Sequence record: NC_028901.1
Strand: one strand, 5' to 3'
DNA from: Escherichia phage slur05
Length of the DNA stretch: 43,900 nt
Shown here: positions 2,750 to 33,478 of the stretch, one piece after another
How positions within the stretch are numbered: the stretch's first letter is position 1
How the letters are laid out: every line of letters begins with the position of its first letter
Made by a program: the position numbers and the translations under genes
The notes under the pieces: model-generated
Told to the model about the DNA's origin: nothing
What the model saw: only the letters and a program-made list of their open reading frames with translations
Databases searched by the model: none

Positions 2750-3245
2750 GCAAAAAGATGGCTGGCGCACGCCGCCAGCTTTATTTAAACCACTGCGTCG
2801 GAAGTACCGATTCCGTTACGATATGGCGGCAAGCGATGCCAACCACCTGCTACCGCGTTACTTCACGGCGGAGCACAGCGCGCTTGATGTGGACTGGGCA
2901 GAGTTGAAAGGGTGGAAGTGGTGCAATCCGCCGTACTCCGATCCGCTGCCGTGGGTAGAGTGCGCTGCGCACGGACGCCGGACCGTCATGCTACTGAATC
3001 AGGACACGTCGACGAAGTGGGCGAAGCTGGCCAGGAAGACTGCAAACCTGATTATTTTGCTGGACTGGCGGATCCGGTTTATACACGCCGTCACCGGTAA
3101 GGTCGGGCCGAGCAACAACAAGTGCCAGCAATTGATAATCTTTGAAGAAGTGCCGCCAAACGGCAGCGCACAAATCGAAATAATGAGCGAAGGTGAATTA
3201 AATGAATATCTTAGTCGTCGACCGAAGTCCTCGCGTCGTGGATGA
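2736..3245 (+). CDS. Phage Dam-family N6-adenine DNA methyltransferase
   Basis: N-terminal WRTPP and the NPPY motif (CNPPYSD) typical of small phage N6-adenine methyltransferases; start overlaps the upstream gene. Confidence 0.65.
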   Translation: MQKSEQKDGWRTPPALFKPLRRKYRFRYDMAASDANHLLPRYFTAEHSALDVDWAELKGWKWCNPPYSDPLPWVECAAHGRRTVMLLNQDTSTKWAKLARKTANLIILLDWRIRFIHAVTGKVGPSNNKCQQLIIFEEVPPNGSAQIEIMSEGELNEYLSRRPKSSRRG

Positions 3246-3423
3246 AATAATTAAACGCTACCAGGTTTTCCCTGGAAATAAAGTAAGGCGCGCAAGCCAA
3301 CCTCATCAATTGCTGGGCCTTGACCTAACTGGCTGGCTTGTCATGACGGCGCGTTGCCATCTTGTGTGCGACGCATTCTCGGCCCGTATTGTACGTGAAA
3401 ATTTAATGGCGGAATTAAAATGA
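3202..3423 (+). CDS. Hypothetical small protein (73 aa)
   Basis: ORF overlapping both neighbours by a few bases, consistent with translational coupling; no recognisable motif. Confidence 0.3.
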   Translation: MNILVVDRSPRVVDEIIKRYQVFPGNKVRRASQPHQLLGLDLTGWLVMTARCHLVCDAFSARIVRENLMAELK

Positions 3424-3890
3424 AACTACTGATTTGCGATTTAGATGGCGTTATCAACGGGTCAAGCAGTGTGCGCGACGACCTAGTTCCGGGGATCAAG
3501 ACTAAATCAACGTTTTGGGCGAAGTGGCATAAGGCCCACGTCCGCGAAGACATTAATTATGACATGCTGCCGTTATTGCGCATGTACGCTAAACAGGGCT
3601 TCGACATTGCGTACCTGTCAAACCGCCAGTCAGATTGCTGGGAGTCAACGAAAGAGCAATTGGATAGATTCCCGAAAGGTCGTCTGTTCTTACGCCATAT
3701 GCTTGATGACACGCCGCCTCCAGAGTACAAGGCCCGTTCCGTATTTGGCCTGGTGTGCTATGCAGAAGTTAACGAACTGGTCATCATTGACGACTGCGCG
3801 AAGAACATCGCCGCCATCAAACGGGCGTGTGAAGAACTGGTCCCGCATATTTATTCTGTGAATCTTGCAAAATTCACTTGCAACCAATAA
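3420..3890 (+). CDS. HAD-superfamily hydrolase/phosphatase-like protein
   Basis: N-terminal DxDGV motif (LICDLDGVING) and a C-terminal aspartate motif (VIIDDCAKN), as in HAD phosphatases. Confidence 0.5.
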   Translation: MKLLICDLDGVINGSSSVRDDLVPGIKTKSTFWAKWHKAHVREDINYDMLPLLRMYAKQGFDIAYLSNRQSDCWESTKEQLDRFPKGRLFLRHMLDDTPPPEYKARSVFGLVCYAEVNELVIIDDCAKNIAAIKRACEELVPHIYSVNLAKFTCNQ

Positions 3891-3906
3891 TGCAACCAAC
3901 TATATT
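3878..3906 (+). promoter_or_regulatory. Sigma70-like promoter TTGCAA-17-TATATT
   Basis: -35 TTGCAA 3878-3883, 17 bp spacer containing TGCAACCAA, -10 TATATT 3901-3906; upstream of gene 3953-4474. Confidence 0.5.
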
Positions 3907-3952
3907 AACCACATCGGGAGGCAATACCGCCTCCCCTAAAAGGAGACAAACC

Positions 3953-4474
3953 ATGAAAGCATACGAATACTGCAAAAACGCCGCCACCACTATGGAACAG
4001 CGCGGGAAAGAAAACGGCTATGACAACGCGAAAGACGAACGCAGCGCTAAACAGGTCGCCGCCGTGTTTAACGCGCTTACCGGGCGCAACCTTACCGAGC
4101 AAGAAGCCTGGACCTTCCTGATCTGCCTGAAGCTGGTGCGCCAGCACCGTAAGCACCAGGAAGATAACATCGTGGACCTGGTAGCATATGCCGCACTGCT
4201 GGGTGAGTCTTACATGACCGTGCATGACGAGATTCAGATCGATACAACGGCAGCACAATTCGACAGCCTCAAAGGCTGGCCCATCTCCACCGGCGGAACG
4301 TGGCGTCCTTCGGCATCTGCGGGCAAGACTGTCAAAGCCGCCGATTTCGGCGTCGTAGCCCAGGACGTCCAGCCTATTGTCGTGCTCACTGGCGAGGATG
4401 GGTCCAAAATCCTCATGACGCCGGAAGATTTCCGTAATATGGAAAAAACACTGGTGACTGGCGCACTTAAATAA
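3953..4474 (+). CDS. Hypothetical protein (173 aa)
   Basis: AAGGAGA RBS before ATG 3953; upstream promoter TTGCAA-17-TATATT (3878-3906); followed by a UUCG-loop hairpin at 4483-4498. Confidence 0.5.
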   Translation: MKAYEYCKNAATTMEQRGKENGYDNAKDERSAKQVAAVFNALTGRNLTEQEAWTFLICLKLVRQHRKHQEDNIVDLVAYAALLGESYMTVHDEIQIDTTAAQFDSLKGWPISTGGTWRPSASAGKTVKAADFGVVAQDVQPIVVLTGEDGSKILMTPEDFRNMEKTLVTGALK

Positions 4475-4482
4475 TGCTAATA

Positions 4483-4498
4483 GCGGGCTTCGGCCCGC
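4483..4498 (+). other. Stable UUCG-tetraloop hairpin without a U-tract
   Basis: GCGGGC-TTCG-GCCCGC directly after the stop of gene 3953-4474; no T-run, so more likely a stability/processing element than a terminator. Confidence 0.35.
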
Positions 4499-4516
4499 AT
4501 CAATGAAGGATCCACA

Positions 4517-5092
4517 ATGTACGGCGAATACGAAATATCTGGTAAACAATTCCACCTGGCGGCAATGATAGCAAGCATCGAGTTTGACCAGTGGAGATAC
4601 AAGTCTGACGCGTGCAAGCAAAGCCGTCTTGTCGGTGTGCTGGGCGAGATGTTTGCAGGCATGTACCTCGAAGGGCAGGCGGGCGGGCGTAGCTGTATTC
4701 CACAAGGTTTGCTAATGCGTACCGGCATGTTTAGCGCTAACACTATCGACCGCGGCGATATTATCATGGTCGGCAAGCGCAAGGTTAAGTCCGGCCCCGA
4801 CTACAAAGAACACATGATTGATGCCGTCTGGACATATGAGGTTAAGGCCGCAAGCGGCATACGTCGCGGACTGGTAGAGGCGCGTTGCGCTCGCGAGTAT
4901 CTCACTCGTCGAGTTGCCGGTGTTATTCTGGTGGGGGTGTCGTTAGGGCCGCAAAGCGCGCATGGCGTGATTGAGGACATCGCAGAGCCATACGTGATTG
5001 TTAATGACTGGCCTTTAGTGGAAGTGGAAGGAAAGGAATACTACGAAAGCCCCCTGGTGCGGCGCAAAATGGACTGGGAAAACTCAAACTAA
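4517..5092 (+). CDS. Hypothetical protein (191 aa), possible PD-(D/E)XK-like nuclease fold
   Basis: ORF ending at a bidirectional terminator; segment PDYKEH...IDAVWTYEVK loosely resembles a D...(D/E)xK nuclease motif. Weak. Confidence 0.35.
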   Translation: MYGEYEISGKQFHLAAMIASIEFDQWRYKSDACKQSRLVGVLGEMFAGMYLEGQAGGRSCIPQGLLMRTGMFSANTIDRGDIIMVGKRKVKSGPDYKEHMIDAVWTYEVKAASGIRRGLVEARCAREYLTRRVAGVILVGVSLGPQSAHGVIEDIAEPYVIVNDWPLVEVEGKEYYESPLVRRKMDWENSN

Positions 5093-5119: not shown

Positions 5120-6805
5120 TTATGCTTTAGTCAGTGCCTCGACCGCGACTTTCAAATCAGCTACGGCAGCTTTCAGTTCTGCAATCTCGGCCTTGTTCGC
5201 CTCGTCACGCGCTCTTAACGCTTTAATAGCTGCCAGGCAATCCGCGACAAGCGGGTTTAAGTCTAACGTCATCATCCCCGGCACTTCGTGGTCGTGCACA
5301 TATTCCCTGTCAACCGTTGCCGCTTGCTGTGCAATGATTCCGCGTCGCGTAGATCTCTCCGGTTCGTCAAACGTGTACCGGAACAACTTAAACTCAAGGC
5401 GGTTGATGTTATCCAGTGCCGCTTCCACATTTAAATTGCCCTTAATATCCTTCACACGGGCGTCAGACTTACCAGCATCTTGCACCCGCGACCATGTTTT
5501 CGTTGTGGAGGAGACTTGCGCGTTGCCGGAGTCGTTCCAACGATAGTAGAGCGCTGGCAGCGCGCCGACCATAACCTGTGCGACACGAGAGGGCGTGTAG
5601 GCAGATTGAAATCCTGCTCCGTTTACCGGTGCCCATGTAGGGGTGCTGATCGACTGCGAGAAAAAGCAAGCCTGCGTATTTGGGGGCGCGTATGAGTATT
5701 CAATCCCAAGTCCGTAGTCCCCCGGCTTCACCGCTTCGCACCAGTTCTGCAGCGCACCATTCTCTTTAGTTCTCCAGAAAAAACGGCTTTGACGTGCGGC
5801 GAACTGTACCGCGTAGTTTTCCTCAAACTTAACATGCAGACCCGCCGCCGAAGTACCCTCGATCGGTGATCCGAAGACGGTAGCGAGATAGGTGCTTCCG
5901 TCAACTTCGTTCCAACTTCCGCCAGGTGCGTTGCCGTTAATGCCATAATCCCCAACGCCGATTGCGTTGAGGGTCTGCCGTGCCGCTGATTTGTCAGTGA
6001 GGTCGGTTAGGTTGTTACTTACCTTAGCGTATTGAGACGGGTCAACCTCGTTTTTGAATTGTTCGGCCTCGTTCCTGTACCCCTGAGCGGCATCACGGGC
6101 GGCTTGCGCGTCCGTCTTCGCGGTGTTGGCCTGATCGCGAATAACTCCGGTATCCGTCTTAATTTGGTTGGTCTGGTCCTTGATGGCCTGCGTATCCGTC
6201 TTAATCTGGTTGGTCTGCGTCTTGATGGTATTGGTGGCGTCGTGGATAGCCTGTGTGTCCGTCTTAATCTGGTTGGTGTTGTTGTAGATGACCTGCGCGC
6301 CTTCCTTGAATCCTTTAGCTTCGTTCCTGGAATTCTGCGCGGCTGCTTCCGATGCGGCGGCTTGTTGCTGCAGGTCGCGCATTTCCACTGGGTCGATCTG
6401 TTTCATCAACTGCGACAGGTATCCCCATGACATACCCTGCATCACCTGCCCGTTCGGCAGCGTGACCGTGATTTCTTCAGCGTCGCCGAAGATTGCACGC
6501 CAGTTGTTTTCATCTGCAATCATCAAGCGCAATGCTTTTTGAGCCTGTACGGTAACGCCCATCGTTGCCAGTGACATGGTATCGCGCTTAACACCATCCC
6601 ACGCAAGGCCGGTTGCCGTTGGGCCGTCGAACGGCAACACCAGCGTGAGCGCGGTTGCGCTTTCAATGGACGCGATTGCCACGGTGTATGGGACTTGTCC
6701 TACCACCAGCGTCAAGAAGTCGCCAGCTTTAAACGCAGTAAACGTTGTGCCGACCCCTACTACAGCCTTGCTATTATTCGTTACAGATAGCGTACCCGCT
6801 GCCAT
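5120..6805 (-). CDS. Tail fiber protein
   Basis: 561 aa with Gly/Thr-rich N-terminus, tandem repeats TNQIKTDTQAI(K/H)DQ, C-terminal coiled coil; sits in the tail module with a strong terminator at 5089-5115. Confidence 0.65.
   Translation of the reverse strand: MAAGTLSVTNNSKAVVGVGTTFTAFKAGDFLTLVVGQVPYTVAIASIESATALTLVLPFDGPTATGLAWDGVKRDTMSLATMGVTVQAQKALRLMIADENNWRAIFGDAEEITVTLPNGQVMQGMSWGYLSQLMKQIDPVEMRDLQQQAAASEAAAQNSRNEAKGFKEGAQVIYNNTNQIKTDTQAIHDATNTIKTQTNQIKTDTQAIKDQTNQIKTDTGVIRDQANTAKTDAQAARDAAQGYRNEAEQFKNEVDPSQYAKVSNNLTDLTDKSAARQTLNAIGVGDYGINGNAPGGSWNEVDGSTYLATVFGSPIEGTSAAGLHVKFEENYAVQFAARQSRFFWRTKENGALQNWCEAVKPGDYGLGIEYSYAPPNTQACFFSQSISTPTWAPVNGAGFQSAYTPSRVAQVMVGALPALYYRWNDSGNAQVSSTTKTWSRVQDAGKSDARVKDIKGNLNVEAALDNINRLEFKLFRYTFDEPERSTRRGIIAQQAATVDREYVHDHEVPGMMTLDLNPLVADCLAAIKALRARDEANKAEIAELKAAVADLKVAVEALTKA
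6100..6300 (-). repeat. In-frame tandem repeats (~33 bp units) inside the tail fiber gene
   Basis: Repeated CCGTCTTAATCTGGTTGGTCTG-type units encoding TNQIKTDTQAIxDQ. Confidence 0.6.
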
Positions 6806-6826
6806 AGCTGAATCCTCTTAAATTGG

Positions 6827-6854
6827 TTGCAATCCTGGTTGAGCGGTGTAATAC
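6827..6854 (+). promoter_or_regulatory. Promoter-like element TTGCAA-16-TAATAC for the lipoprotein cassette
   Basis: ATTGGTTGCAA at 6822-6832 followed 16 bp later by TAATAC. Confidence 0.35.
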
Positions 6855-6885
6855 TAAAACTCAACCAAATATAGGGGATGATACC

Positions 6886-7107
6886 ATGAAAACTTTAATT
6901 ATGATTTGTGCGGTTCTTTTATCCGGTTGCGCCGTAGAACGCAACAACGGCGATTGCATTACGGTTGCGTACGGTAGCTGCATGTTGTGCTACGTTGATG
7001 GGCAAAAAGTCCCGGCAGGAGATGTGGACATGCGATTCACGGGGCTGTCTTCAGATAGCGACGGCAATTTCTCAGGCACAGTATCAGTTAAATCACGGGA
7101 GTGGTAA
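6886..7107 (+). CDS. Small lipoprotein (73 aa), Cor/Llp-like superinfection-exclusion candidate
   Basis: MKTLIMICAVLLSGC: signal peptide with lipobox LSGC; AGGGGA RBS; opposite strand to the flanking tail genes, with its own promoter-like element. Confidence 0.55.
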   Translation: MKTLIMICAVLLSGCAVERNNGDCITVAYGSCMLCYVDGQKVPAGDVDMRFTGLSSDSDGNFSGTVSVKSREW

Positions 7108-7109
7108 TA

Positions 7110-8075
7110 ATGGGCGCTGGAATACTTATCGACTATAACGACGGAAGACCGCGCATGGAGATCACCGCGGGACTTCGCGCGCCGTCATACTGCACCAGCT
7201 TTAACCAGCGGGCACAGTCCAATAAGACGTTAACCATTAACACCCCTCTTACGGCGGGGTCGCAGGTCGTCGTCGCTCTCACTCGCCCGGTAGAGGTGAT
7301 TGAGGTATTCGACCAGACACTGGTAATACCAGATCCGTTTTACGTTACGTCGGTTACTCGCAACGGTAATAGTGGTATCACCCTGCGCGGGGAGGATGCG
7401 TATGGCGCGTACTCTGGTTTACCACAATGGGCTGGCGTCATAATGGAAGTGCTGCCGGTTGGGTCGCGAAACGCAGGTTTACTGGTGGCTAACTCGACGG
7501 ACTTCACCGCCATATCCAACGTGTCTAAGCTAATGACCTGCCGATACGCACAGCGAGTACGCGTCAACGGTAGTATGGCCTTGCCCGTTAGCGGTGTCCC
7601 GTTCGCCCGCTGGGATGACGGCAACGTATCAGTAGGCTTCGATGGTGGCAGTATTATCGTCCGCAACGCGGCCTATGGTGGCATCGACGATGTGGCGGCT
7701 TCGGTGGACATGGACCTTGTCATATTCAACAATACACCACCCACGCCAGGGGCCGGGATCACTATGACAAATAACCAGAATCAGGTCACGTTCTCGACGG
7801 TGAACAAGCCGTTCGTATATGACCGCACGATTAACATCGGCACGGGCGACCAGAATATAGGAAACAGCCTGATCCAGCTTTCATACACCGGCGCGCTGAT
7901 TCAGAACAACGGGGGCTATAACCACGTCCGCATGAACGGAATACGCATGGCGGGTAATAATGTGCGCGTCGCTAAAAACCGCGTCATCGGCAACTACTCA
8001 CGGCAGCAATTCCAGATGCCAGGTAAAAATATTGCCGTACCCACCCCGCTACTCGTCATCCCGAATATGTATTGA
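7110..8075 (+). CDS. Hypothetical protein (321 aa) co-transcribed with the lipoprotein
   Basis: ATG 7110 with GGGAG RBS, 2 nt after the lipoprotein stop; Gly/Asn-rich, probably beta-rich; followed by hairpin 8077-8096. Confidence 0.45.
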   Translation: MGAGILIDYNDGRPRMEITAGLRAPSYCTSFNQRAQSNKTLTINTPLTAGSQVVVALTRPVEVIEVFDQTLVIPDPFYVTSVTRNGNSGITLRGEDAYGAYSGLPQWAGVIMEVLPVGSRNAGLLVANSTDFTAISNVSKLMTCRYAQRVRVNGSMALPVSGVPFARWDDGNVSVGFDGGSIIVRNAAYGGIDDVAASVDMDLVIFNNTPPTPGAGITMTNNQNQVTFSTVNKPFVYDRTINIGTGDQNIGNSLIQLSYTGALIQNNGGYNHVRMNGIRMAGNNVRVAKNRVIGNYSRQQFQMPGKNIAVPTPLLVIPNMY

Positions 8076-8101: not shown

Positions 8102-11100
8102 TTACCACGTCCCGACTTTCACCCTCCCCCCGCCAGGTAACGGCACGTTTACGCCTGTCTTGTCGATCGTCACGGTCCCACCAGAAAACCCGAAGTTACC
8201 CGATGTGGCGTACAGGTTGCCGCGGACCGTTACGTTGTTCAATTCCGCGTTACCCGATTTAGGCAGGTTCCACCCTGACGACCCCGCAACGAAGTTATTA
8301 GACCGCAGCGTGTCCGTGATCTGTGCGAAGTTAATGGACGCGTTCTTGATTCGTGCCGTGTCGATGTACACCTGTCCTCCGTCGACGATGAACGCGGACG
8401 AAAGCGACCCATTAGATGGGTGCATGATGTAGAACTGGTCGGCTTTGAACGCGATACGAGATTTAACCGCGCTGCCCGACGTTACAACGGAAAGCTGCAT
8501 ACCCGCATCATAGTAAGTACCGTTATACGTCACACCCGCCTTAAGGCTGTATGTGGCGCTACCACCGGAGTGGTTAAACGAGGACGTCATCTTCTGCTCG
8601 ATCGCGGCGGACTGCTGACCGAACTTAGCGGCAACAGTTTGTTGGTACTGGGCGAACGCTTGCTCGTGCGTGCTTTGCGCGGTCTGCAACGTGTGGATTG
8701 CCGCTTCCGCATCGTCAAGGCGAGTACCGATCAACGTTTCCAGTTGCGCTACCGCCTGGTGGGCATCTGCCGCCACGTTATACGCGACCGAGATTTCTGC
8801 ATAAATCCCCTTGTACTCGGCGCGGGCGTTAAACAATTGCTGTGCGTCGGTGAGCATAGCCTCATAAATGCCTTGCGGCATGGTGTCGATCGCTTCCTGG
8901 AAGCGTTTACCGTCCTCAGAAGTCAAGAACTCGTCGTCCAGCCCATTCATATACTCGTCAACATTGTCACTCACCTGCCCTTCAAACGGGTCCGACCAGT
9001 CCGACAGGTTGCCGATTTTATCCGCTACACGGGCGCGCAACTGCTGATAGATGCCGAACTCCAGCGACGTTTGCGCATACTCCGACCCCGGGTATGGGAC
9101 GTTGGTTAGGAATTTCCATTCCGTTTCACCCGTCTTGCGAACTTCAAGCTCGGTGTACGAAATATCCGTCGCGGCGTTATTGTGGTTCCACTTCCACAAA
9201 ATCTGGTGAAGGCCCGAAATCGCGTTGGTGATGATAGGCGCGTTAAGACCGCCGAGACGACCTTCCACCGGCGTGATGGCAGAAGACACCCACGGGGATG
9301 AAATCTCGCCCATACCGATCGCGCGGACGCGTGCCTGATAATTGCCTGAAAACACGTTAGGGATGTGCGCGCCGTTCGATGCCGTACGTGGGATGTTTAC
9401 CCAGTCGTTACCCCACTGGATTTCCATATTCTGCAAGCTGGTGCGTCGCCACTGGATTTCATACACCACGGCATCTTTCACCGGCGGGAATACAATATCA
9501 ACGTTGGTGATTAGCTGGCCTTGCGATGAAATCTGCGACGGGGTGATGGTCACGGATTCCGGCCCCTTCATTACACCGTCGGGCACTTGCGTAAAGATGC
9601 CTGGGTCAAGGCGAGCGCCATTATCAACGGCATCATATTTGCTATCGTTGTATTCGATCCCGCGCACTGAAAAAGTGCTGGTAGAGTCGTCATATTCCAG
9701 GTCGGTGATGCGGAACTTCTGCAACTGGATATCGTTGCCATCGACGCAAAACGGCTGATCAGGAATCGGGTCGGCGTCCAGTGCGGTTTTTAGCGTAACC
9801 TTGTTGCCGTTGACGCTGGCAATCTCGCGAGTCTCCACATTACCGCTATCGGTGCGTACCAGGAATTTATCACCTGGGCGGAACGTGATTTCGCTGTCCG
9901 TGTTAAGCACGGTACGCGTGCCAGGGTCCGACAACAGGCGACCGCCGCGTGTCTCGAAGCCGCCAGAAAAGTTTGTATCGGCGATCGCGACTACGCTACC
10001 CGGAATAAAGAAAAGTCCCTCCATGCCAACCTTAAAGCTAACTTGCTGGTCAAGCTGGTTGGAGATTAGCGCCCAGTGCCCGCGGCGTTGCGCTTCAGAT
10101 TCACGCGTACAGCCGATCGCCGTGATGTCCAGACGGTTAATCTTATGGCGGCGTACCAGTTCGACACGCTGCCCCGTAGCAATGGCATCTTCATAGTGGT
10201 TCTTCGGGTTGCCGTATGCTACCGCGAATGTGGAATATCGAGTTTTCTGGCTGCCGGACGCGTAGTCGAATCGACCATCAATGACCGAGGCGTTGGTGAT
10301 GGTGTGCGATACCGCTGCGACCGGCTGGTCACTGACGATATTCAACATCTGATTTCCCCACCAGGTCATACCGGCAAAGATAGCGGCTAAATCCTTAAGC
10401 ACGGTCCAGGCATCCGTCTGTGACTGAATGTACATATCATTCTTAAAGCGGATTTCTCGACCACCGTTGCCGTCGCTGACCAACTGATCGCAGCGCTGCG
10501 CAATCTGGTAGAGCGCGTATCGGTTTAGCATTTGCGGTTTGATACGCCGACCGAGGCCGAAGCGCTCAGTAATACAAATATCGTACCAGTGCCACGCAGG
10601 GTTATCCGTCCATGCGCGTTTAAACGTGCCGTCCCAGTCCCCGGAATAGGTATGATTGATCGGGTCGTAGTTGTTCGGTATTAGAACTTTGCGACCTTTG
10701 CACTTAATGGACACGCGCGGGATGTTCTGGAACGCTTTGGCGTCGAACTCCACAAACAACAGCGCGGTTAGCGGGTAACGCAGGCGGGCGTCAATAATCT
10801 CAGTGATGGACTGCACCCGGATATCATTAACCACTTTCGCCGATGTGGAGTCTGCCGTTATGCGGTGCACCTCCACGCGCCAGCCGGTGTTAACGTTCGG
10901 AGGTAATTCGATGCGGTGGTCGCGCTCATATAGCGACATTGTTTTACCAACGGCGGCGAATCTGAACTCACGCGGGTCGGCGTTATCCGTATACACAACT
11001 ATCTTATAGTCGATGCGCCCGCCCACCAGGTCGCCGTTGTCTTCGTTGGTGTACAGGGCCGGAATGCCGATTCGAATGCGCACGGCGTCAAGACTGGTGT

Positions 11101-11452
11101 CGTTAATCTGGCGCACCCACGGCGTGCCGTTTTCCAGTTTTACGCCTACGGATTGCTCACTTTCCACCGCTGAAAATCCGTGGATCACGTCCTGGTGCTG
11201 TGTGCCTGGGCGGAACTCCACGCGCGCGCCGGGGAAGTTTTCCGACAGGTCGGCGTTCTGGATCGGCGTGCCGTCCAGATATACACGCTGCCGTAATTCG
11301 CTGTCGCTGGTAATACTTTCGAATTCCCCTTCCCCTAGCGCAAGCAAGATGCGAATTTTAGCCAGGGAATGCAGGCTATCCGGCGTTTCCTGCGGGGTGT
11401 GCTGTTTGCCGCCGCCGCCTTTATGCCCAGTGACGTCGTAGATAATCGTCAT
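8102..11452 (-). CDS. Tail tip/central fiber protein (lambda J-like)
   Basis: 1116 aa; N-terminus (GGGGKQHTPQETPDSLHSLAKIRILLALGEGE) resembles the lambda J N-terminus; follows the I-like gene. Confidence 0.75.
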   Translation of the reverse strand: MTIIYDVTGHKGGGGKQHTPQETPDSLHSLAKIRILLALGEGEFESITSDSELRQRVYLDGTPIQNADLSENFPGARVEFRPGTQHQDVIHGFSAVESEQSVGVKLENGTPWVRQINDTSLDAVRIRIGIPALYTNEDNGDLVGGRIDYKIVVYTDNADPREFRFAAVGKTMSLYERDHRIELPPNVNTGWRVEVHRITADSTSAKVVNDIRVQSITEIIDARLRYPLTALLFVEFDAKAFQNIPRVSIKCKGRKVLIPNNYDPINHTYSGDWDGTFKRAWTDNPAWHWYDICITERFGLGRRIKPQMLNRYALYQIAQRCDQLVSDGNGGREIRFKNDMYIQSQTDAWTVLKDLAAIFAGMTWWGNQMLNIVSDQPVAAVSHTITNASVIDGRFDYASGSQKTRYSTFAVAYGNPKNHYEDAIATGQRVELVRRHKINRLDITAIGCTRESEAQRRGHWALISNQLDQQVSFKVGMEGLFFIPGSVVAIADTNFSGGFETRGGRLLSDPGTRTVLNTDSEITFRPGDKFLVRTDSGNVETREIASVNGNKVTLKTALDADPIPDQPFCVDGNDIQLQKFRITDLEYDDSTSTFSVRGIEYNDSKYDAVDNGARLDPGIFTQVPDGVMKGPESVTITPSQISSQGQLITNVDIVFPPVKDAVVYEIQWRRTSLQNMEIQWGNDWVNIPRTASNGAHIPNVFSGNYQARVRAIGMGEISSPWVSSAITPVEGRLGGLNAPIITNAISGLHQILWKWNHNNAATDISYTELEVRKTGETEWKFLTNVPYPGSEYAQTSLEFGIYQQLRARVADKIGNLSDWSDPFEGQVSDNVDEYMNGLDDEFLTSEDGKRFQEAIDTMPQGIYEAMLTDAQQLFNARAEYKGIYAEISVAYNVAADAHQAVAQLETLIGTRLDDAEAAIHTLQTAQSTHEQAFAQYQQTVAAKFGQQSAAIEQKMTSSFNHSGGSATYSLKAGVTYNGTYYDAGMQLSVVTSGSAVKSRIAFKADQFYIMHPSNGSLSSAFIVDGGQVYIDTARIKNASINFAQITDTLRSNNFVAGSSGWNLPKSGNAELNNVTVRGNLYATSGNFGFSGGTVTIDKTGVNVPLPGGGRVKVGTW

Positions 11453-20814: not shown

Positions 20815-21915
20815 TTAAGACGCGGTAGTCGCAGTCAGCGTAACCAGTACGCCAGCCGTTTCCTTGATGTGGCGGGTAGGCACTGCCTGTGCGGCCTGGG
20901 TCTTACGACGGCCTTTAGTATCGCCATCCCCCACAGCGCCAACATCCTGCACGGTTGCCGGTGCGTTGTCTACCTGGCCCTGGTCCAGTTCCCAGTTAGC
21001 GGAAGTGGTGATATCGTCCAGCTTGAACGAGCGCACACCTTCGATCGGGGTACGAGCGGACGCCTTCAGACGGTAGCCTTTAACGGCCACGTTGAAGTCG
21101 AACTCGCCCTGCCACCAGCGTTCGATGTTCTCGTTACCGCCTTTCTCCTGCGCCAGCATATCGAGGCCGTTGGTGGTAACTGCAACCGCGCCAGGAACCA
21201 GACCCAGCATGTTACCAGCGCCCATAGAATCGGCAGCGGCATCGGAGATAATGAATCGACGGCCCAGGCCATCACCCATTACCTGTAGATCGCCAATTGC
21301 GAATACCTGTTCAGCGGAAGGGAGTGCCTGGTACGCAATGAAGTTTGCCCAGGTAACGCCGTCCATAAACCAGGACTTAATCAAAGACGCCTGATCGCCG
21401 AACTTAGAAGCCGCCAGCGGGAAGTCTGCCAGGGTCGGGAAGGTACGACCGCCAACGCCGTCAACGCGCGCCGGTTGGGTGTATTTTGCCGCTGCGTTGC
21501 TTTCGATCGCCGCTTTACTTGCGCCGATACCAGCTTTCAGGTAGTGCAGCATAATCGCTTGAGTAGCCTGTGCCGCAATCTCAGCCGCAACGCTGTTAAC
21601 GTTGGTTTCGATCTTAGCCATCATAGCCTTAGTGATTGCTACCGGACCCACTTTTGCGGAAAGGTTAACCGAGTTGGTCAGCATACGCGCCAGAACTTTC
21701 GCGGTTGCCGGAGTGCCGACAGGGGCGTAGGCGTTACGGTCGGTAACGAGGTTGGCGATCAAGCCTACGGACATTTTCTCAATAACATCCTTCAGCACTT
21801 CACCAGTACCGAGAACAACAGCGCCATTGGCGGCGGCGTTGAAAACGTTCAGGTTGTCGGGGATCATTTGCGTAACCGCGGTAACGAGTTTACGCTGGAA
21901 CACTGTTAAAGACAT
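20815..21915 (-). CDS. Major capsid protein
   Basis: 366 aa directly after the scaffold gene, followed by strong terminator 20772-20797; Ala/Gly/Val-rich composition. Confidence 0.7.
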   Translation of the reverse strand: MSLTVFQRKLVTAVTQMIPDNLNVFNAAANGAVVLGTGEVLKDVIEKMSVGLIANLVTDRNAYAPVGTPATAKVLARMLTNSVNLSAKVGPVAITKAMMAKIETNVNSVAAEIAAQATQAIMLHYLKAGIGASKAAIESNAAAKYTQPARVDGVGGRTFPTLADFPLAASKFGDQASLIKSWFMDGVTWANFIAYQALPSAEQVFAIGDLQVMGDGLGRRFIISDAAADSMGAGNMLGLVPGAVAVTTNGLDMLAQEKGGNENIERWWQGEFDFNVAVKGYRLKASARTPIEGVRSFKLDDITTSANWELDQGQVDNAPATVQDVGAVGDGDTKGRRKTQAAQAVPTRHIKETAGVLVTLTATTAS

Positions 21916-22012: not shown

Positions 22013-22717
22013 TTACTCGTCGTCGCCCATCTTCGCGATGATATCCCCCGCCTGTTTCGTAAGGTCAGTGATACCGAAGCTATGGCCCATAGTGATTTTC
22101 GACTTCACATCTTCGACAACCTGCGTCGGTTTGCTAGGCGCGCCACCGGCTGGCGTGCCAGCCAGGACGGATGCAAAATCGGCGTTATTACGGAACTCTT
22201 TTTCAAGCTCTTCCATAGTCAGCGCGGACGGTTTGCCATCCTGCAAGACACGCACTTTCAAGCTGCCGTCTTCGCCGTCTTCCAGCGTCAGGCGGTCCAT
22301 TACGTGGCGTTGCATGATGCCCGCATTCTTACCGAATAGCTTCGATGCCAGGTCTTTGGCAGCGCTGCCGATGGTTAGGTCGTGGATCTGCTTGCGGTAG
22401 GCTTCGATTTTTCCCGATGTGTCTGCTTCGTGTTTCGCAAACTTATCTTTCCAGGACTTGTCGATTGCTTCGAGGTCGCCATTTTTGCGCGCTGCGGCTT
22501 CCTCTTTCTCTTTCGCAAGGCGCTCAGCTTCGGCGCGGCGTTCAGCTTCTGCTTTCTTCTCGCTCACCAGCTTCGCGTTGTTGTCTTTCAGACCCTTGAT
22601 TTCCGCCTGTACTTCTTCTGCGGTCATGAAAGTTGATTTATACCCGTCGCCATCGGCAACAAAAAGCGCCTTCATACCTTCCGGCAACGCGTCATATTCT
22701 GCTTTAGTAAGTTTCAT
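22013..22717 (-). CDS. Capsid scaffolding protein
   Basis: Start refined to MKLTKAEYDALPEG (GGGGGAT SD); central charged coiled coil (KKAEAERRAEAERLAKEKEEAAARK); upstream of the capsid gene. Confidence 0.65.
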   Translation of the reverse strand: MKLTKAEYDALPEGMKALFVADGDGYKSTFMTAEEVQAEIKGLKDNNAKLVSEKKAEAERRAEAERLAKEKEEAAARKNGDLEAIDKSWKDKFAKHEADTSGKIEAYRKQIHDLTIGSAAKDLASKLFGKNAGIMQRHVMDRLTLEDGEDGSLKVRVLQDGKPSALTMEELEKEFRNNADFASVLAGTPAGGAPSKPTQVVEDVKSKITMGHSFGITDLTKQAGDIIAKMGDDE

Positions 22718-22807
22718 GCTATCCCCCTGGGATTGTGGCAGAGCAGGCCACCCGCTCGACTTCACGCTTCTAATATTATCAGCGATAAAAATAATCGCAA
22801 AATTCGC

Positions 22808-22836
22808 TTGCAATCCTCGTATTGGTTGCATATATT
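22808..22836 (+). promoter_or_regulatory. Sigma70-like promoter TTGCAA-17-TATATT for moron 22866-23630
   Basis: -35 TTGCAA 22808-22813; spacer contains ATTGGTTGCA; -10 TATATT 22831-22836; second ATTGGTTGCA at 22834-22843. Confidence 0.5.
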
Positions 22837-22865
22837 GGTTGCACACCAACAACGAGGACACACTA

Positions 22866-23630
22866 ATGAGACTGACAAAAGACATTAAAAACCAGATTCT
22901 GGCTAACATCCTGCGCGACCATGAAATCGCGACCGAAGCAAAATCCATCATGATGGACTCTCGCGACTTGGCGTACGCCATTACGCTGGACTGTATGCCG
23001 GAAGGCATTCGCACGTTCGCCGAGTTACGCGCATATATCGCAGAAATCCGCGATAACCAGTCGCAGATGTATGGCGTTAGCGTTTACACCGACAAGGCGA
23101 CGTATAGCTATAACTCCGACCGGCCAAAAGGCATCGGCCGCGTTTATAGCGCCGGATTCGATATCAACGCAGGCGGTAATGTTCGCACCGTATCATTGAG
23201 CGGCGATGGATACCGATACCGCCTGCACCGCGGATACTGGGAAGAGAAATATATGAACAAGCTATCTCCCGATCTCGGTGATATCGTACCGGGGTACGAG
23301 GAAGTTATGCTGGCTTCAGTGTGCGAAGTGGACGAGGACGGAAAATCGCTGCCGATATATCTTCCGCGCGGTCGCGTAGACTACCCGGCGGACCATGATT
23401 TCTGTAAGTGCCTGGATCGCAACGACAAGTCCCGCCGCGAGTTGCGAGCTAAGTATGACGCGTTCAAACTAACCGTTACCGGTGTGCTGGATATGCACAA
23501 TACCGATAAGAAGCTGATCAAGGCGTGGCCTGAAGTGGAACAGTTCATTCCTTACCCGGACAAGCCAAAATCCACGGCGGTGGCGCTGGACGTGAAGACG
23601 TTAAACGAAATCTGCGGTATTCAGCGCTAA
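22866..23630 (+). CDS. Hypothetical protein (254 aa), plus-strand moron inside the head module
   Basis: GAGGA RBS; own promoter TTGCAA-17-TATATT (22808-22836); terminator hairpin 23636-23654; opposite strand to all neighbours. Confidence 0.55.
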   Translation: MRLTKDIKNQILANILRDHEIATEAKSIMMDSRDLAYAITLDCMPEGIRTFAELRAYIAEIRDNQSQMYGVSVYTDKATYSYNSDRPKGIGRVYSAGFDINAGGNVRTVSLSGDGYRYRLHRGYWEEKYMNKLSPDLGDIVPGYEEVMLASVCEVDEDGKSLPIYLPRGRVDYPADHDFCKCLDRNDKSRRELRAKYDAFKLTVTGVLDMHNTDKKLIKAWPEVEQFIPYPDKPKSTAVALDVKTLNEICGIQR

Positions 23631-23635
23631 CAAAA

Positions 23636-23660
23636 GGGGGCCATCACAGCCCCCGAATTA
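23636..23660. terminator. Bidirectional terminator between moron 22866-23630 and the spanin genes
   Basis: Stem GGGGGC/GCCCCC with 7 nt loop; T-rich flanks on both strands. Confidence 0.5.
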
Positions 23661-23874
23661 TTTTCTGCAAATCCAGCACTTGCGCCCTTAGCTTCGCGCC
23701 GCATTCCATATTTTTCACGTCAATCATCAAATCTTCGTCGGGGTCCGCAGACGGGTTATCGAACTTGCACGGCGGTCGCAGTGCCGACTCCGTTAGCGGC
23801 ATCAACGGCACGTTGCTTGATCCGCACGCGCTCAGCATCAAAACTACAATCAGGGCGGTTAGGGCGCGTAACAT
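23644..23874 (-). CDS. Outer-membrane lipoprotein, o-spanin (Rz1-like) candidate
   Basis: MLRALTALIVVLMLSACGSS: signal peptide with lipobox LSAC; Pro-rich mature part with Cys; overlaps the 3' end of the i-spanin candidate in another frame. Confidence 0.55.
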   Translation of the reverse strand: MLRALTALIVVLMLSACGSSNVPLMPLTESALRPPCKFDNPSADPDEDLMIDVKNMECGAKLRAQVLDLQKIIRGL

Positions 23875-24085
23875 ATTTAACAACCTCTTTCGTGATAGTC
23901 CGGTATTCTACGTCGCGGGCTTGTTCGGCCTGCACGGAGCGCTCAATAACTTTAGTTTGCTGCCGTTGGGCTTCTGCTTGCGCTTCTTGCGCCGCCTCCG
24001 CCACTACGCCAGCGCGATAGGAGTCACCTAGCCAGAATCCTACCACCAGACCGATAACCAGCCCAATCGCTGCATACTTAATCAC
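23756..24085 (-). CDS. i-spanin (Rz-like) candidate
   Basis: Probable GTG start after a GGGGG SD; N-terminal transmembrane segment (IKYAAIGLVIGLVVGFWLG) then coiled coil (AEAAQEAQAEAQRQQ); classic overlapped Rz/Rz1 arrangement. Confidence 0.5.
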   Translation of the reverse strand: MIKYAAIGLVIGLVVGFWLGDSYRAGVVAEAAQEAQAEAQRQQTKVIERSVQAEQARDVEYRTITKEVVKYVTRPNRPDCSFDAERVRIKQRAVDAANGVGTATAVQVR

Positions 24086-25181
24086 GCCATAACCCCCGGT
24101 TTTTAAGCTGTGCAATAGTCATTAGTTCGCCAGTATCGGTGAACATCTTCGGCACTTTCACGCCGCGCATAATCTGATCGGCGCGCTGCACCCCATATAA
24201 TTCCTCCAGAATATGGCGCGGCTGGCGCTGCACCCATGAGAAGAAATCAGTCTGCGCGTCGACCTGCTCACTCAGCAATCTGCCTGCGTCAGCCTTCAGT
24301 GCCGGACGCTTACCACTGGGCCAATCTTCCATACCTTTGACTTTCCACGTCTCCGTCGAACGGCAGCAATAATGCAGCTTGCCCGGACCAGCGCCATATT
24401 GTGACCCCGCCACCACTTTCCCGCCGCGCTTTCCTTTGGTGTCGGGGGTAACATCAACCGGATAAAACAGGCGATCGCGTAGCTGGCACATGGGAGAAGT
24501 ATGCGTGTCCAATGTAGCCAACCATTGGCGACCTTCGAGAATATCGTCATTAGCTTTTACCATTAATTCGCGGGCGGTCGCCGCATAGTGGTTGACCGCG
24601 GACTTAACAACGCTTGAGATTGCTTGCGCACTACGACCGCCTAGCGCGCGCCTCACATCCGCGATAATTTCCATCGTCGGCTTGCCCTGGATGAATCCAG
24701 CGCGCACCTGATTGCCGATCTGCGTCCTAGTCCACTCGGAAAGTGAATCAGGCCATTGCATCATGGTGTTTCCCTGGAACGGGTTTTTCATTGCAGTCGC
24801 TGCAATCTGCGCGCCCGTAACTACACCCACCACCTCAACCGCTGGTACAGCGACAGCGGGCTGGATCGCTGCCGTTAGTGTGTCCGCGAGATAATCAGCC
24901 TCGGTGTCGGCGAACTCCTGAAGGCTCTCCGCCAGCACTTTAAACTCGGCGCGCAGTTCCGTTTTGACGGTCTTGTCGATTTGGGTTAACAGTGTGGTAA
25001 GTGCCTTGTTGCTCATGGACTTTTTGCCATCAAGTAACTCGGTCAGCTTACCAAGTAAAGTGGGCCGGAACTTCTCCCACATAGCCAGCACCCTCCGCGC
25101 CTGATCATTGCTCAGGCGCTGGGTGAAGATGTGACGGCGAATCATTCGATCCGCCAAATGTTGATTAATTGTCTTCGCCAT
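24078..25181 (-). CDS. Head morphogenesis protein (SPP1 gp7 / Mu F-like)
   Basis: 367 aa after the portal gene; ATLDTHTSPMC motif characteristic of the gp7/MuF minor head protein family. Confidence 0.65.
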   Translation of the reverse strand: MAKTINQHLADRMIRRHIFTQRLSNDQARRVLAMWEKFRPTLLGKLTELLDGKKSMSNKALTTLLTQIDKTVKTELRAEFKVLAESLQEFADTEADYLADTLTAAIQPAVAVPAVEVVGVVTGAQIAATAMKNPFQGNTMMQWPDSLSEWTRTQIGNQVRAGFIQGKPTMEIIADVRRALGGRSAQAISSVVKSAVNHYAATARELMVKANDDILEGRQWLATLDTHTSPMCQLRDRLFYPVDVTPDTKGKRGGKVVAGSQYGAGPGKLHYCCRSTETWKVKGMEDWPSGKRPALKADAGRLLSEQVDAQTDFFSWVQRQPRHILEELYGVQRADQIMRGVKVPKMFTDTGELMTIAQLKNRGLWRD

Positions 25182-33151: not shown

Positions 33152-33478
33152 TTATTTCGCAAGCTGGGCGAATAGTTCACGCTGGGCTTTAATCCGGGCG
33201 ACGTTTGTCACTGCCGTCTCGCCGATCCCGAAGCGATACGCAAGGCGCTCACGGGCAAATGCAAGCGCGTAGTCCTGGATTGCGTTCGCCAGTGGCTGGA
33301 TCTCCGCCATCGTGTCGAAGCGGCGCTCCAGCATACAAGCGATGGCCTGCTGCGTGACGCGAACAACGGACCACGCTGCCGATAGTCTTTCGACCGCTTC
33401 CGCTCCTTCACCGGCGAACTCCGCCGCTTCTTGTGCCGCCGCCATAGCCATTGCGTAATTCCAGATAATCGCTTTCAT
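33152..33478 (-). CDS. Hypothetical protein (108 aa)
   Basis: Ala-rich helical ORF, first gene downstream of the 33.5-34.0 kb regulatory region. Confidence 0.4.
   Translation of the reverse strand: MKAIIWNYAMAMAAAQEAAEFAGEGAEAVERLSAAWSVVRVTQQAIACMLERRFDTMAEIQPLANAIQDYALAFARERLAYRFGIGETAVTNVARIKAQRELFAQLAK

Follow-up and report, generated by a model that had tools for sequence, protein, structure and literature searches.

The genome of Escherichia phage slur05 (NC_028901.1), a stretch of 43,900 nt called the window below, raises the question of what a plus-strand gene is doing within a late head module that is otherwise read from the minus strand. The open reading frame (ORF) concerned, on the plus strand, extends from an ATG at 22866 to a TAA at 23628-23630 and encodes 254 aa; its coordinates and the strands of its neighbors bear out the original prediction that it is read against the late head genes. 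That prediction recognized no motif in the product, but the protein matches the Pfam family PF18757 (Nmad5) over its full length (E = 9.5e-55, 186.3 bits against a cut-off of 27 bits, residues 1-252 on profile positions 1-205 of 206), as well as PHROG 1965 (E = 3.5e-59). The gene, nmad5, is an already described member of a catalogued family, real and correctly delimited. The Pfam and PHROG matches and the ratio of nonsynonymous to synonymous substitution rates (dN/dS) place it certainly above chance: compared with five other Dhillonviruses, it is under purifying selection (dN/dS 0.12-0.15). Over positions 22700-23700 the DNA agrees letter for letter (100% identity) with that of Escherichia phage slur06, a Dhillonvirus (LN881731). 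As for its function, we tentatively favor a non-virion binding protein of early or mid-infection that would act at the phage-host interface, a reading that falls a little short of being probable.

Two longer forms of the ORF, one of 334 aa from an ATG at 22626 and one of 403 aa from stop to stop, were considered and rejected: they overlap the scaffold gene in antisense, and the MRLT N-terminus aligns at 22866, behind a GAGGA sequence. The question of the start also concerns the published Dhillonvirus orthologues, CDS7 of phiSMA8 and CDS6 of phiSMS22 (Yamashita et al. 2025, Commun Biol, PMC11846954). A residue numbered K216 in phiSMA8 is K296 in phiSMS22, which implies a start 80 codons upstream, whose equivalent in the window is the ATG at 22626. 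Since 110 of 110 family representatives align from M-R-L-T, the form with 80 additional codons is probably an annotation artifact, and both the N-terminal alignment and the ribosome-binding site (RBS) ahead of 22866 point to a real product of 254 aa.

An exhaustive HMMER search recovered 812 representatives of the Nmad5 family after clustering at 50% identity. Most of them have around 200 aa, from which the Dhillonvirus proteins differ by some 50 additional residues brought by insertions in the middle. Conservation was measured on an alignment of 110 representatives. The nmad5 product contains the N-terminal motif R-L-T..I...I..N-A (with R2, L3 and T4 conserved), the conserved central glycines G104 and G113, the C-terminal block T213-x-x-K216-L-x3-W-P-E-x3-[LF]-x-P and, past a variable linker, an L-N-x3-G-[LI]-P motif. 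Position 216 lies within the most conserved of these motifs (T213-x-x-K216-L217-x3-W221-P222-E223 in slur05) and is occupied by K, Q or R in 97 of the 110 representatives. The conserved columns are mostly hydrophobic, to which R2, T4, N14, T213, K216, E223 and N247 are added, and no His, Cys, Asp or Ser is conserved across the alignment. The Cys/His-containing patch that had been singled out in the C-terminal part (DHDFCKCLD) is not conserved even within the genus, and a metal-binding motif there was rejected: C182 is Arg in most Dhillonviruses (FCKRLD), and C180 and H177 are absent from distant homologues.

The product is a mildly acidic (isoelectric point 6.1), soluble alpha+beta protein of 29 kDa. 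The AlphaFold model obtained with the 110-sequence alignment (mean predicted local distance difference test, pLDDT, 91.8; predicted template modeling score, pTM, 0.85; an alignment of 10 sequences gave a pLDDT of 56.6) combines three helices at the N-terminus with a four-stranded sheet, a variable insert, a long helix that spans 178-209 and short helices at the C-terminus. Its secondary-structure output contains a beta-bridge between residues 2 and 213, which suggests that the two conserved termini may form one surface. Foldseek detected no relative of this fold in the PDB (best E = 1.8), a sequence-profile search of the PDB gave nothing below E = 0.1, and a structure search of BFVD returned only other Nmad5 proteins. 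Homology to structural or assembly families, which would have counted against the original prediction, was not detected in Pfam, PHROGs, NCBIfam, the PDB or BFVD. None of the PADLOC models of defence-system proteins matched at E ≤ 1, and a match to an NCBIfam ECF sigma factor (E = 0.06, 13.5 bits against a cut-off of 247 bits) was dismissed as noise.

The most direct information on the role of the protein comes from the genetics of its orthologues. In phiSMA8 and phiSMS22, phages that escaped the Tmn defence system carried respectively K216E and K296E in Nmad5; reversion of the change brought back the sensitivity to Tmn and its introduction conferred resistance (PMC11846954). A delta-nmad5 phage was viable, the gene being dispensable for plaque formation, and it was still sensitive to Tmn; one escaper also had a mutation in the scaffold gene. 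Cloning of nmad5 in E. coli was unsuccessful, which the authors of that study attribute to toxicity. They consider Nmad5, by its family name, a DNA-modification enzyme and the mutation an apparent gain of function, and they locate the gene near the capsid gene, two coding sequences before the scaffold protein. These results are relevant to slur05, whose phage belongs to the same genus and whose protein has the same 254 aa and K216; the identity of the phiSMA8 and phiSMS22 proteins to slur05 Nmad5 is expected to lie at 84-97%, the range found across other Dhillonviruses. A host-interaction or defence function had been proposed for the slur05 gene, and the published link to Tmn sustains it in part: the link concerns a gain-of-function escape allele only, and for the wild-type protein such a role is plausible. 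A 2026 preprint that does not mention Nmad5 reports that Tmn recognizes RIIB of phage T2 directly and is triggered by it, and calls RIIB a replisome component (PMC13001434).

The time at which nmad5 is expressed can be approached through its upstream region. A promoter scan called a -35 hexamer TTGCAA (22808-22813) and, 17 nt after it, a -10 hexamer TATATT (22831-22836), a sigma-70-like pair with 9 of 12 consensus matches on the plus strand; the spacer has 18 nt in phages WFI and Bas84. This predicted promoter, which had been noticed from the start, becomes more credible because it is kept in six Dhillonviruses, because the intergenic region that holds it is more conserved than its surroundings and because homologous promoters exist in Edwardsiella phage eiAU-183. 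The divergent intergenic region (148 nt, 22718-22865, from the scaffold start at 22717 on the minus strand to the nmad5 start; 46.6% GC) shows 91-98.6% identity among Dhillonviruses, above that of nmad5 itself, and the surrounding kilobase or so has about 89-90% DNA identity in most relatives of the genus. In eiAU-183, gp31 is preceded by CTTGCAATCC...TATAGT and gp32, which is the Nmad5 of this phage, by TTGCAC-17-TATAGT, with an AACAACGAGGA leader in common with slur05 nmad5. The predicted RBS was also found, as a plus-strand Shine-Dalgarno sequence GAGGA (22854-22858) 7 nt 5' of the ATG, and the CAACAACGAGGA stretch is also present in the eiAU-183 Nmad5 leader. Within the window, TTGCAATCC from the -35 region is found again at 6827 and 33675, and the leader TATATTGGTTGCAC.CCAACA..GAGGAC is nearly repeated, with the near-identical stretch CAACATGAGGAC, before a 108-aa gene (33152-33478) that adjoins the primase-helicase region. 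Host sigma-70 RNA polymerase would transcribe nmad5 through a promoter class shared with genes of the early/replication region, and since this class is common to such genes, nmad5 is probably made early or in mid-infection and not with the head proteins. The early-right location of eiAU-183 gp32 and the place of lambdoid homologues behind N in the pL operon agree with such a timing.

At the other end of the gene, a hairpin GGGGGC-CATCACA-GCCCCC (23636-23654) was called as a terminator on both strands. It exists where the original prediction had placed a terminator proper to the gene, but it seems to be a bidirectional terminator shared by convergent genes and not private to nmad5: it overlaps the stop codon of the o-spanin gene (23644-23646), the run of T that follows it is of better quality on the minus strand (TTTTGTT; GAATTATTTT on the plus strand), and the annotation of phage WFI gives the same hairpin as a minus-strand terminator. 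The transcript with which it is shared is that of the convergent spanin and head-morphogenesis genes.

Within the genus, nmad5 was found in about 148-152 of some 155 Dhillonvirus records, and it evolves faster than the genes that surround it. In the five relatives compared, Nmad5 is 87.5-89% identical in four and 96.5% in the fifth, against 96-100% for the capsid, scaffold and head-morphogenesis proteins; its synonymous rate (dS) is higher than that of the three head genes and its dN/dS around 2-5 times higher. The variability is concentrated at residues 41-100. We count this faster evolution and its concentration in one segment in favor of the binding-protein reading, as the signature of an arms race.

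According to that reading, Nmad5 would not be part of the virion or of its assembly machinery, and in the infected cell it would serve to bind a partner or as an adaptor, and would not be a base-hypermodifying enzyme in its own right. The working surface would be formed by the N-terminal R2-L3-T4 packed against the C-terminal T213/K216/W221-P222-E223, as the structural model suggests, and the fast-evolving middle of the protein (residues ~45-125) would tune its specificity. Its target would be a host or phage factor at the point where bacterial immunity or early takeover is met, and it is on account of such a target that a single K216E change could rewire the outcome of Tmn. Consistent with a place outside the virion, there is no 254-aa protein among the 24 phage proteins reported from cell-free lysates of Dhillonvirus EE09, which include the capsid, scaffold fragments, head-morphogenesis and portal proteins (PMC10673088). 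Nevertheless, several points weigh against this interpretation. The EE09 negative is a weak one, as it concerns a lysate and not purified virions, a different Dhillonvirus and 24 detected proteins. The Tmn result describes a neomorphic allele and does not establish that the wild-type protein acts on a defence or on the host, and a gene so nearly universal in the genus looks more like one with a core function than like an optional counter-defence gene. The single surface made by the N- and C-terminal motifs comes from the secondary-structure output of AlphaFold only. Even without conserved residues of catalytic type, Nmad5 could be an enzyme, since its cluster of Arg, Lys, Thr, Asn and Glu could bind a nucleotide or a phosphate, and the toxicity met in cloning would also fit an enzyme with host DNA or nucleotides as its substrate. 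Finally, the expression timing is deduced from promoter similarity only, and the promoter match is by itself not above chance (2 sites found against 2.1 expected in 2.5 kb).

The name of the family leads to another explanation, which we regard as rather unlikely: Nmad5 would be an enzyme, or an obligatory cofactor, that modifies DNA bases or nucleotides, either alone or together with the phage methyltransferases, and escape from Tmn would reflect an altered modification state. RefSeq/NCBI calls these proteins 'Nmad5 family putative nucleotide modification protein', the authors of PMC11846954 favor this activity, and an action on host DNA could account for the unsuccessful cloning. R2, T4, N14, T213, K216, E223 and N247 could make up a ligand site, although the protein has no fold similarity to a known transferase, glycosylase or kinase. 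The family name itself is based on gene neighborhood only, and this neighborhood is seen in Pseudomonas phage M6 and in SN1, whose Nmad5 homologues lie within thymidine-hypermodification cassettes, next to an aGPT-Pplase, a kinase, radical-SAM (rSAM) and PLP enzymes and a ThyA-like hydroxymethylase (PMC9476957). The M6 protein, gp056, belongs to the same family and has the N-terminal RLT and the C-terminal T-x-x-K-L-x3-WPE and L-N-x3-G-[LI]-P in common with slur05 Nmad5, but it can be aligned with it over the C-terminal third only (38% identity). When eight proteins of the M6 cassette were compared with the window by tblastn, Nmad5 was the sole match (E = 6e-10), and the other seven, among them the aGPT-Pplase, kinase, rSAM, PLP, ThyA-like and HD proteins, had no homologue there. 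As the association with modification enzymes is not found in the window, the functional label of Nmad5 is weakened, and its membership in the family by sequence is unaffected. In an annotated relative, methyltransferases are the only modification genes listed, and the Dhillonviruses are, in the description of the BASEL study, phages of comparatively high sensitivity to type I and type II restriction, which speaks against the modification role. The genetics also fit poorly with a loss of modification, since K216E alters the sensitivity to Tmn and the deletion of the gene does not.

The genomic contexts of other homologues further narrow the basis of the modification hypothesis. In phage HK542, the homologue HK542_033, which the family profile recognizes at hmmsearch E = 8e-55, comes right after the gene of the N antiterminator in the pL operon. 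It differs from slur05 Nmad5 in being part of the pL transcript instead of having its own promoter, in belonging to a temperate and not a virulent phage, and in its low identity to it, about 31-32% over the C-terminal 96 residues. Its position after N corresponds to that of ea10/ral in phage lambda, so that it is an accessory gene in a slot occupied in lambda by host-interaction genes. One lambdoid allele of the family is found in 211 of 5,426 complete E. coli genomes (around 4%). Loci from IMG/VR were collected with a subset alignment of 14 sequences, and the 80 that were kept are dominated by redundant lambdoid prophages, 74 of them in two clusters; read with this redundancy, 76 of the 80 belong to Nmad5 clusters whose representatives show the order cI repressor - N - Nmad5 - bet/exo. 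The same early-left context, without a named N, is seen in a PGAP-annotated E. coli prophage. Other homologues are found in small early-gene arrays, beside RusA, primase-helicase/D5-like genes or RdgC, before a holin, or beside RecT or Bet/Exo/Erf operons; some lie inside tail modules, in a myovirus-like contig and in Vibrio phage 1.093.O, in one case on the opposite strand. One metagenomic homologue, whose neighbors are a DNA polymerase A gene and a weak match to ThyX, gives the modification hypothesis some additional support. Since most of the sampled contexts are unrelated to modification, the contextual basis of the Nmad5 name holds for a minority of the family. In one metagenomic contig (SRR33471207_25014, 4158-4944 of locus L011), a distant homologue lies directly downstream of genes with HD, YAcAr and NADAR domains. 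These domains are tied to NAD/ADP-ribose conflict systems, and this single example hints at a counter-defence neighborhood.

A bolder proposal goes beyond the binding protein favored here and we consider it doubtful, though worth stating. In that case, Nmad5 would be mis-named: it would be a widespread early phage family devoted to host interaction or counter-defence, with a fold that has no solved relative and a K216 surface that would contact immune sensors or phage triggers, and the Dhillonvirus copy would be a relocated, self-promoted cassette under a TTGGTTGC operator regulon. Whatever its exact role, the family name may mislead annotation. As the sampled members are mostly in early or accessory slots without modification enzymes, attention would be better directed to binding partners and expression timing, beyond DNA chemistry alone. 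The gene is already a handle in phage engineering for evading Tmn; our findings sharpen the questions on a common protein of coliphages and E. coli prophages and do not reveal a new kind of system.

The TTGGTTGC motif invoked in this proposal is present at the promoter of nmad5. Two exact copies of TATTGGTTGCA stand there on the plus strand, the first (22820-22830) in the spacer and abutting the -10 hexamer, the second (22833-22843) over the -10 hexamer and the likely transcription start. The pair is a candidate operator that forms part of a genome-wide motif, the 8-mer TTGGTTGC, of which the 43,900-nt window has 22 copies when about 1.3 would be expected from its length (at 2206, 2223, 3880, 3892, 6823, 12183, 15532, 22822, 22835, 30265, 30288, 33062, 33501, 33532, 33623, 33904, 33939, 33993, 36808, 39823, 39839 and 43650). 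The copies are mostly intergenic and often paired at a spacing of 12-54 nt, and a cluster of them is located directly downstream of the primase-helicase gene (33.0-34.0 kb). Bas84 has 21 copies, conserved in number and relative position, and eiAU-183, which is enriched as well, has 19, some of them clustered directly behind its primase-helicase gene. As a candidate operator or iteron, the motif could mark a phage-wide regulon or an origin, and nmad5, judging from these sites and from its leader nearly repeated before the 108-aa gene, may belong to the same regulon as early-region genes. Nmad5 is unlikely to be the protein that binds TTGGTTGC, the motif being absent from the Nmad5-bearing loci of HK542 and M6. 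The only other exact TTGCA-N17-TATANT site of the window (3878-3906, plus strand) is located in the gap between two convergent genes (3420-3890, plus strand; 3905-4705, minus strand) and consists of a pair of TTGGTTGC copies that read from the opposite strand, which may represent an antisense promoter or two operators.

A further explanation is that Nmad5 would be an accessory of DNA replication or recombination, for instance a protein associated with the replisome or with DNA ends, in which case Tmn would sense a replisome-associated phage protein as it does with RIIB of T2. The homologues found beside primase-helicase/D5-like, RusA, RdgC, RecT or Bet/Exo/Erf genes would agree with this, as would eiAU-183, where Nmad5 is preceded by the primase-helicase gene and by a long TTGGTTGC-rich non-coding stretch, and the RIIB precedent itself is in its favor (PMC13001434). 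Yet this association by neighborhood is loose, because early operons mix many functions, and slur05 nmad5 lies away from the replication module. Moreover, the gene is dispensable for plaque formation, and a protein with an isoelectric point of 6.1 and no recognizable DNA-binding fold is not what would be expected of such an accessory. We judge this explanation quite unlikely.

The position of nmad5 in the head module has to be explained as well. All the genes that flank it are on the minus strand. Upstream lie the divergent scaffold gene (22013-22717) and the capsid gene (20815-21915); downstream come, in convergent orientation, the o-spanin gene (23644-23874, with the lipobox LSAC), the i-spanin gene that it overlaps (23756-24085) and the head-morphogenesis gene (24078-25181), beyond which are the portal and large terminase genes, also on the minus strand. 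The location between the scaffold and head-morphogenesis genes given in the original prediction is right on the scaffold side, but on the other side the immediate neighbors are the two spanin genes. That Nmad5 is a head-assembly or packaged virion protein, sited there because it acts there, is highly improbable: its place between the scaffold and the head-morphogenesis/spanin genes (kept in a 42%-identical relative), the homologues in the tail modules of the myovirus-like contig and Vibrio phage 1.093.O and the scaffold mutation of one Tmn escaper are outweighed by its opposite strand and own promoter, its dispensability, its absence from this position in the otherwise collinear head module of eiAU-183, its absence from the EE09 lysate proteins, among which neighboring head proteins were found, the early operons that house most family members and the lack of similarity to any structural protein family.

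The comparison with eiAU-183 rather indicates an insertion. In this phage of the sister genus, the nearest outgroup (58% identity in the head-morphogenesis protein), gp44 (head morphogenesis) adjoins gp45 (scaffold), and Nmad5 (gp32) is found in the early-right region, after the primase-helicase region; both spanins are also located elsewhere than at the gp44/gp45 junction. A moron, in the definition reportedly given by Juhala and Hendrix, is a supernumerary gene that brings its own promoter and terminator and lies inserted between genes adjacent in relatives. Like the classical lambdoid morons, nmad5 has its own promoter and a terminator, is in the opposite orientation, is dispensable and separates genes that are adjacent in eiAU-183. 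It differs from them in its base composition, which is not deviant (52.5% GC against 54.5% in the window; 64% GC at third codon positions, GC3, against 61-69% in its neighbors), in being nearly universal in the genus, in sharing its terminator with the convergent operon and in the virulent lifestyle of the phage, so that there is no expression from a prophage. The initial description of the gene as a self-contained moron can then be retained for the predicted promoter-RBS-ORF-terminator unit, for the insertion relative to eiAU-183 and for the extra cargo seen in relatives, but the gene is neither sporadic nor of unusual GC content.

This extra cargo is found at both ends of the gene. In phage welsh, a 104-aa ORF with no Pfam match (1674-1988 of locus L005) separates the conserved promoter from nmad5, whose own RBS is retained, and in the 42%-identical relative nmad5 is at the same site and is followed by a 170-aa gene. 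Matches to the nmad5 region in two pieces were also obtained in ZCEC10, ZCEC11, Zar3M and P-GXEC-L2P5, and the junction between promoter and nmad5 is apparently a hot spot where accessory genes settle. The identity of the welsh ORF with the published anti-Tmn gene could not be established: anti-Tmn is ORF35 of phiSMS22, in which nmad5 is CDS6.

In slur05, the i-spanin/o-spanin pair (23644-24085) is within the head module, behind the head-morphogenesis gene and around 6.5 kb from the holin and endolysin genes (~30.5-31.9 kb). In eiAU-183, unlike the Dhillonvirus arrangement, the spanin is grouped with the holins and the endolysin, and by this comparison the spanins and nmad5 make up a single inserted block in the Dhillonvirus head module.

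Two other encounters between Dhillonviruses and bacterial defences do not involve Nmad5. In the Dhillonvirus SECphi18, the trigger of KpAvs2 is Ksap1, a 74-aa protein encoded elsewhere, and the trigger of RAZR is the portal protein. Ksap1 has been described as a direct activator of the Klebsiella Avs2 defence (bioRxiv 10.1101/2024.01.31.578182). In the window, a 73-aa ORF (3202-3423, plus strand) between a gene of the methyltransferase region and a gene in the polynucleotide-kinase/phosphatase position matches the location of Ksap1, by position only.

A second cassette oriented against a structural module is found at 6823-8075 on the plus strand, between the tail fibre gene (5120-6805) and the gene for tail protein J (8102-11452), both on the minus strand. 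It is composed of a small ORF and a gene for a 324-aa protein, for which the annotation of Bas84 reads 'membrane protein; moron'. The cassette is preceded by ATTGGTTGCAATCC, and its TTGCAATCC -35 region is common with the nmad5 promoter.

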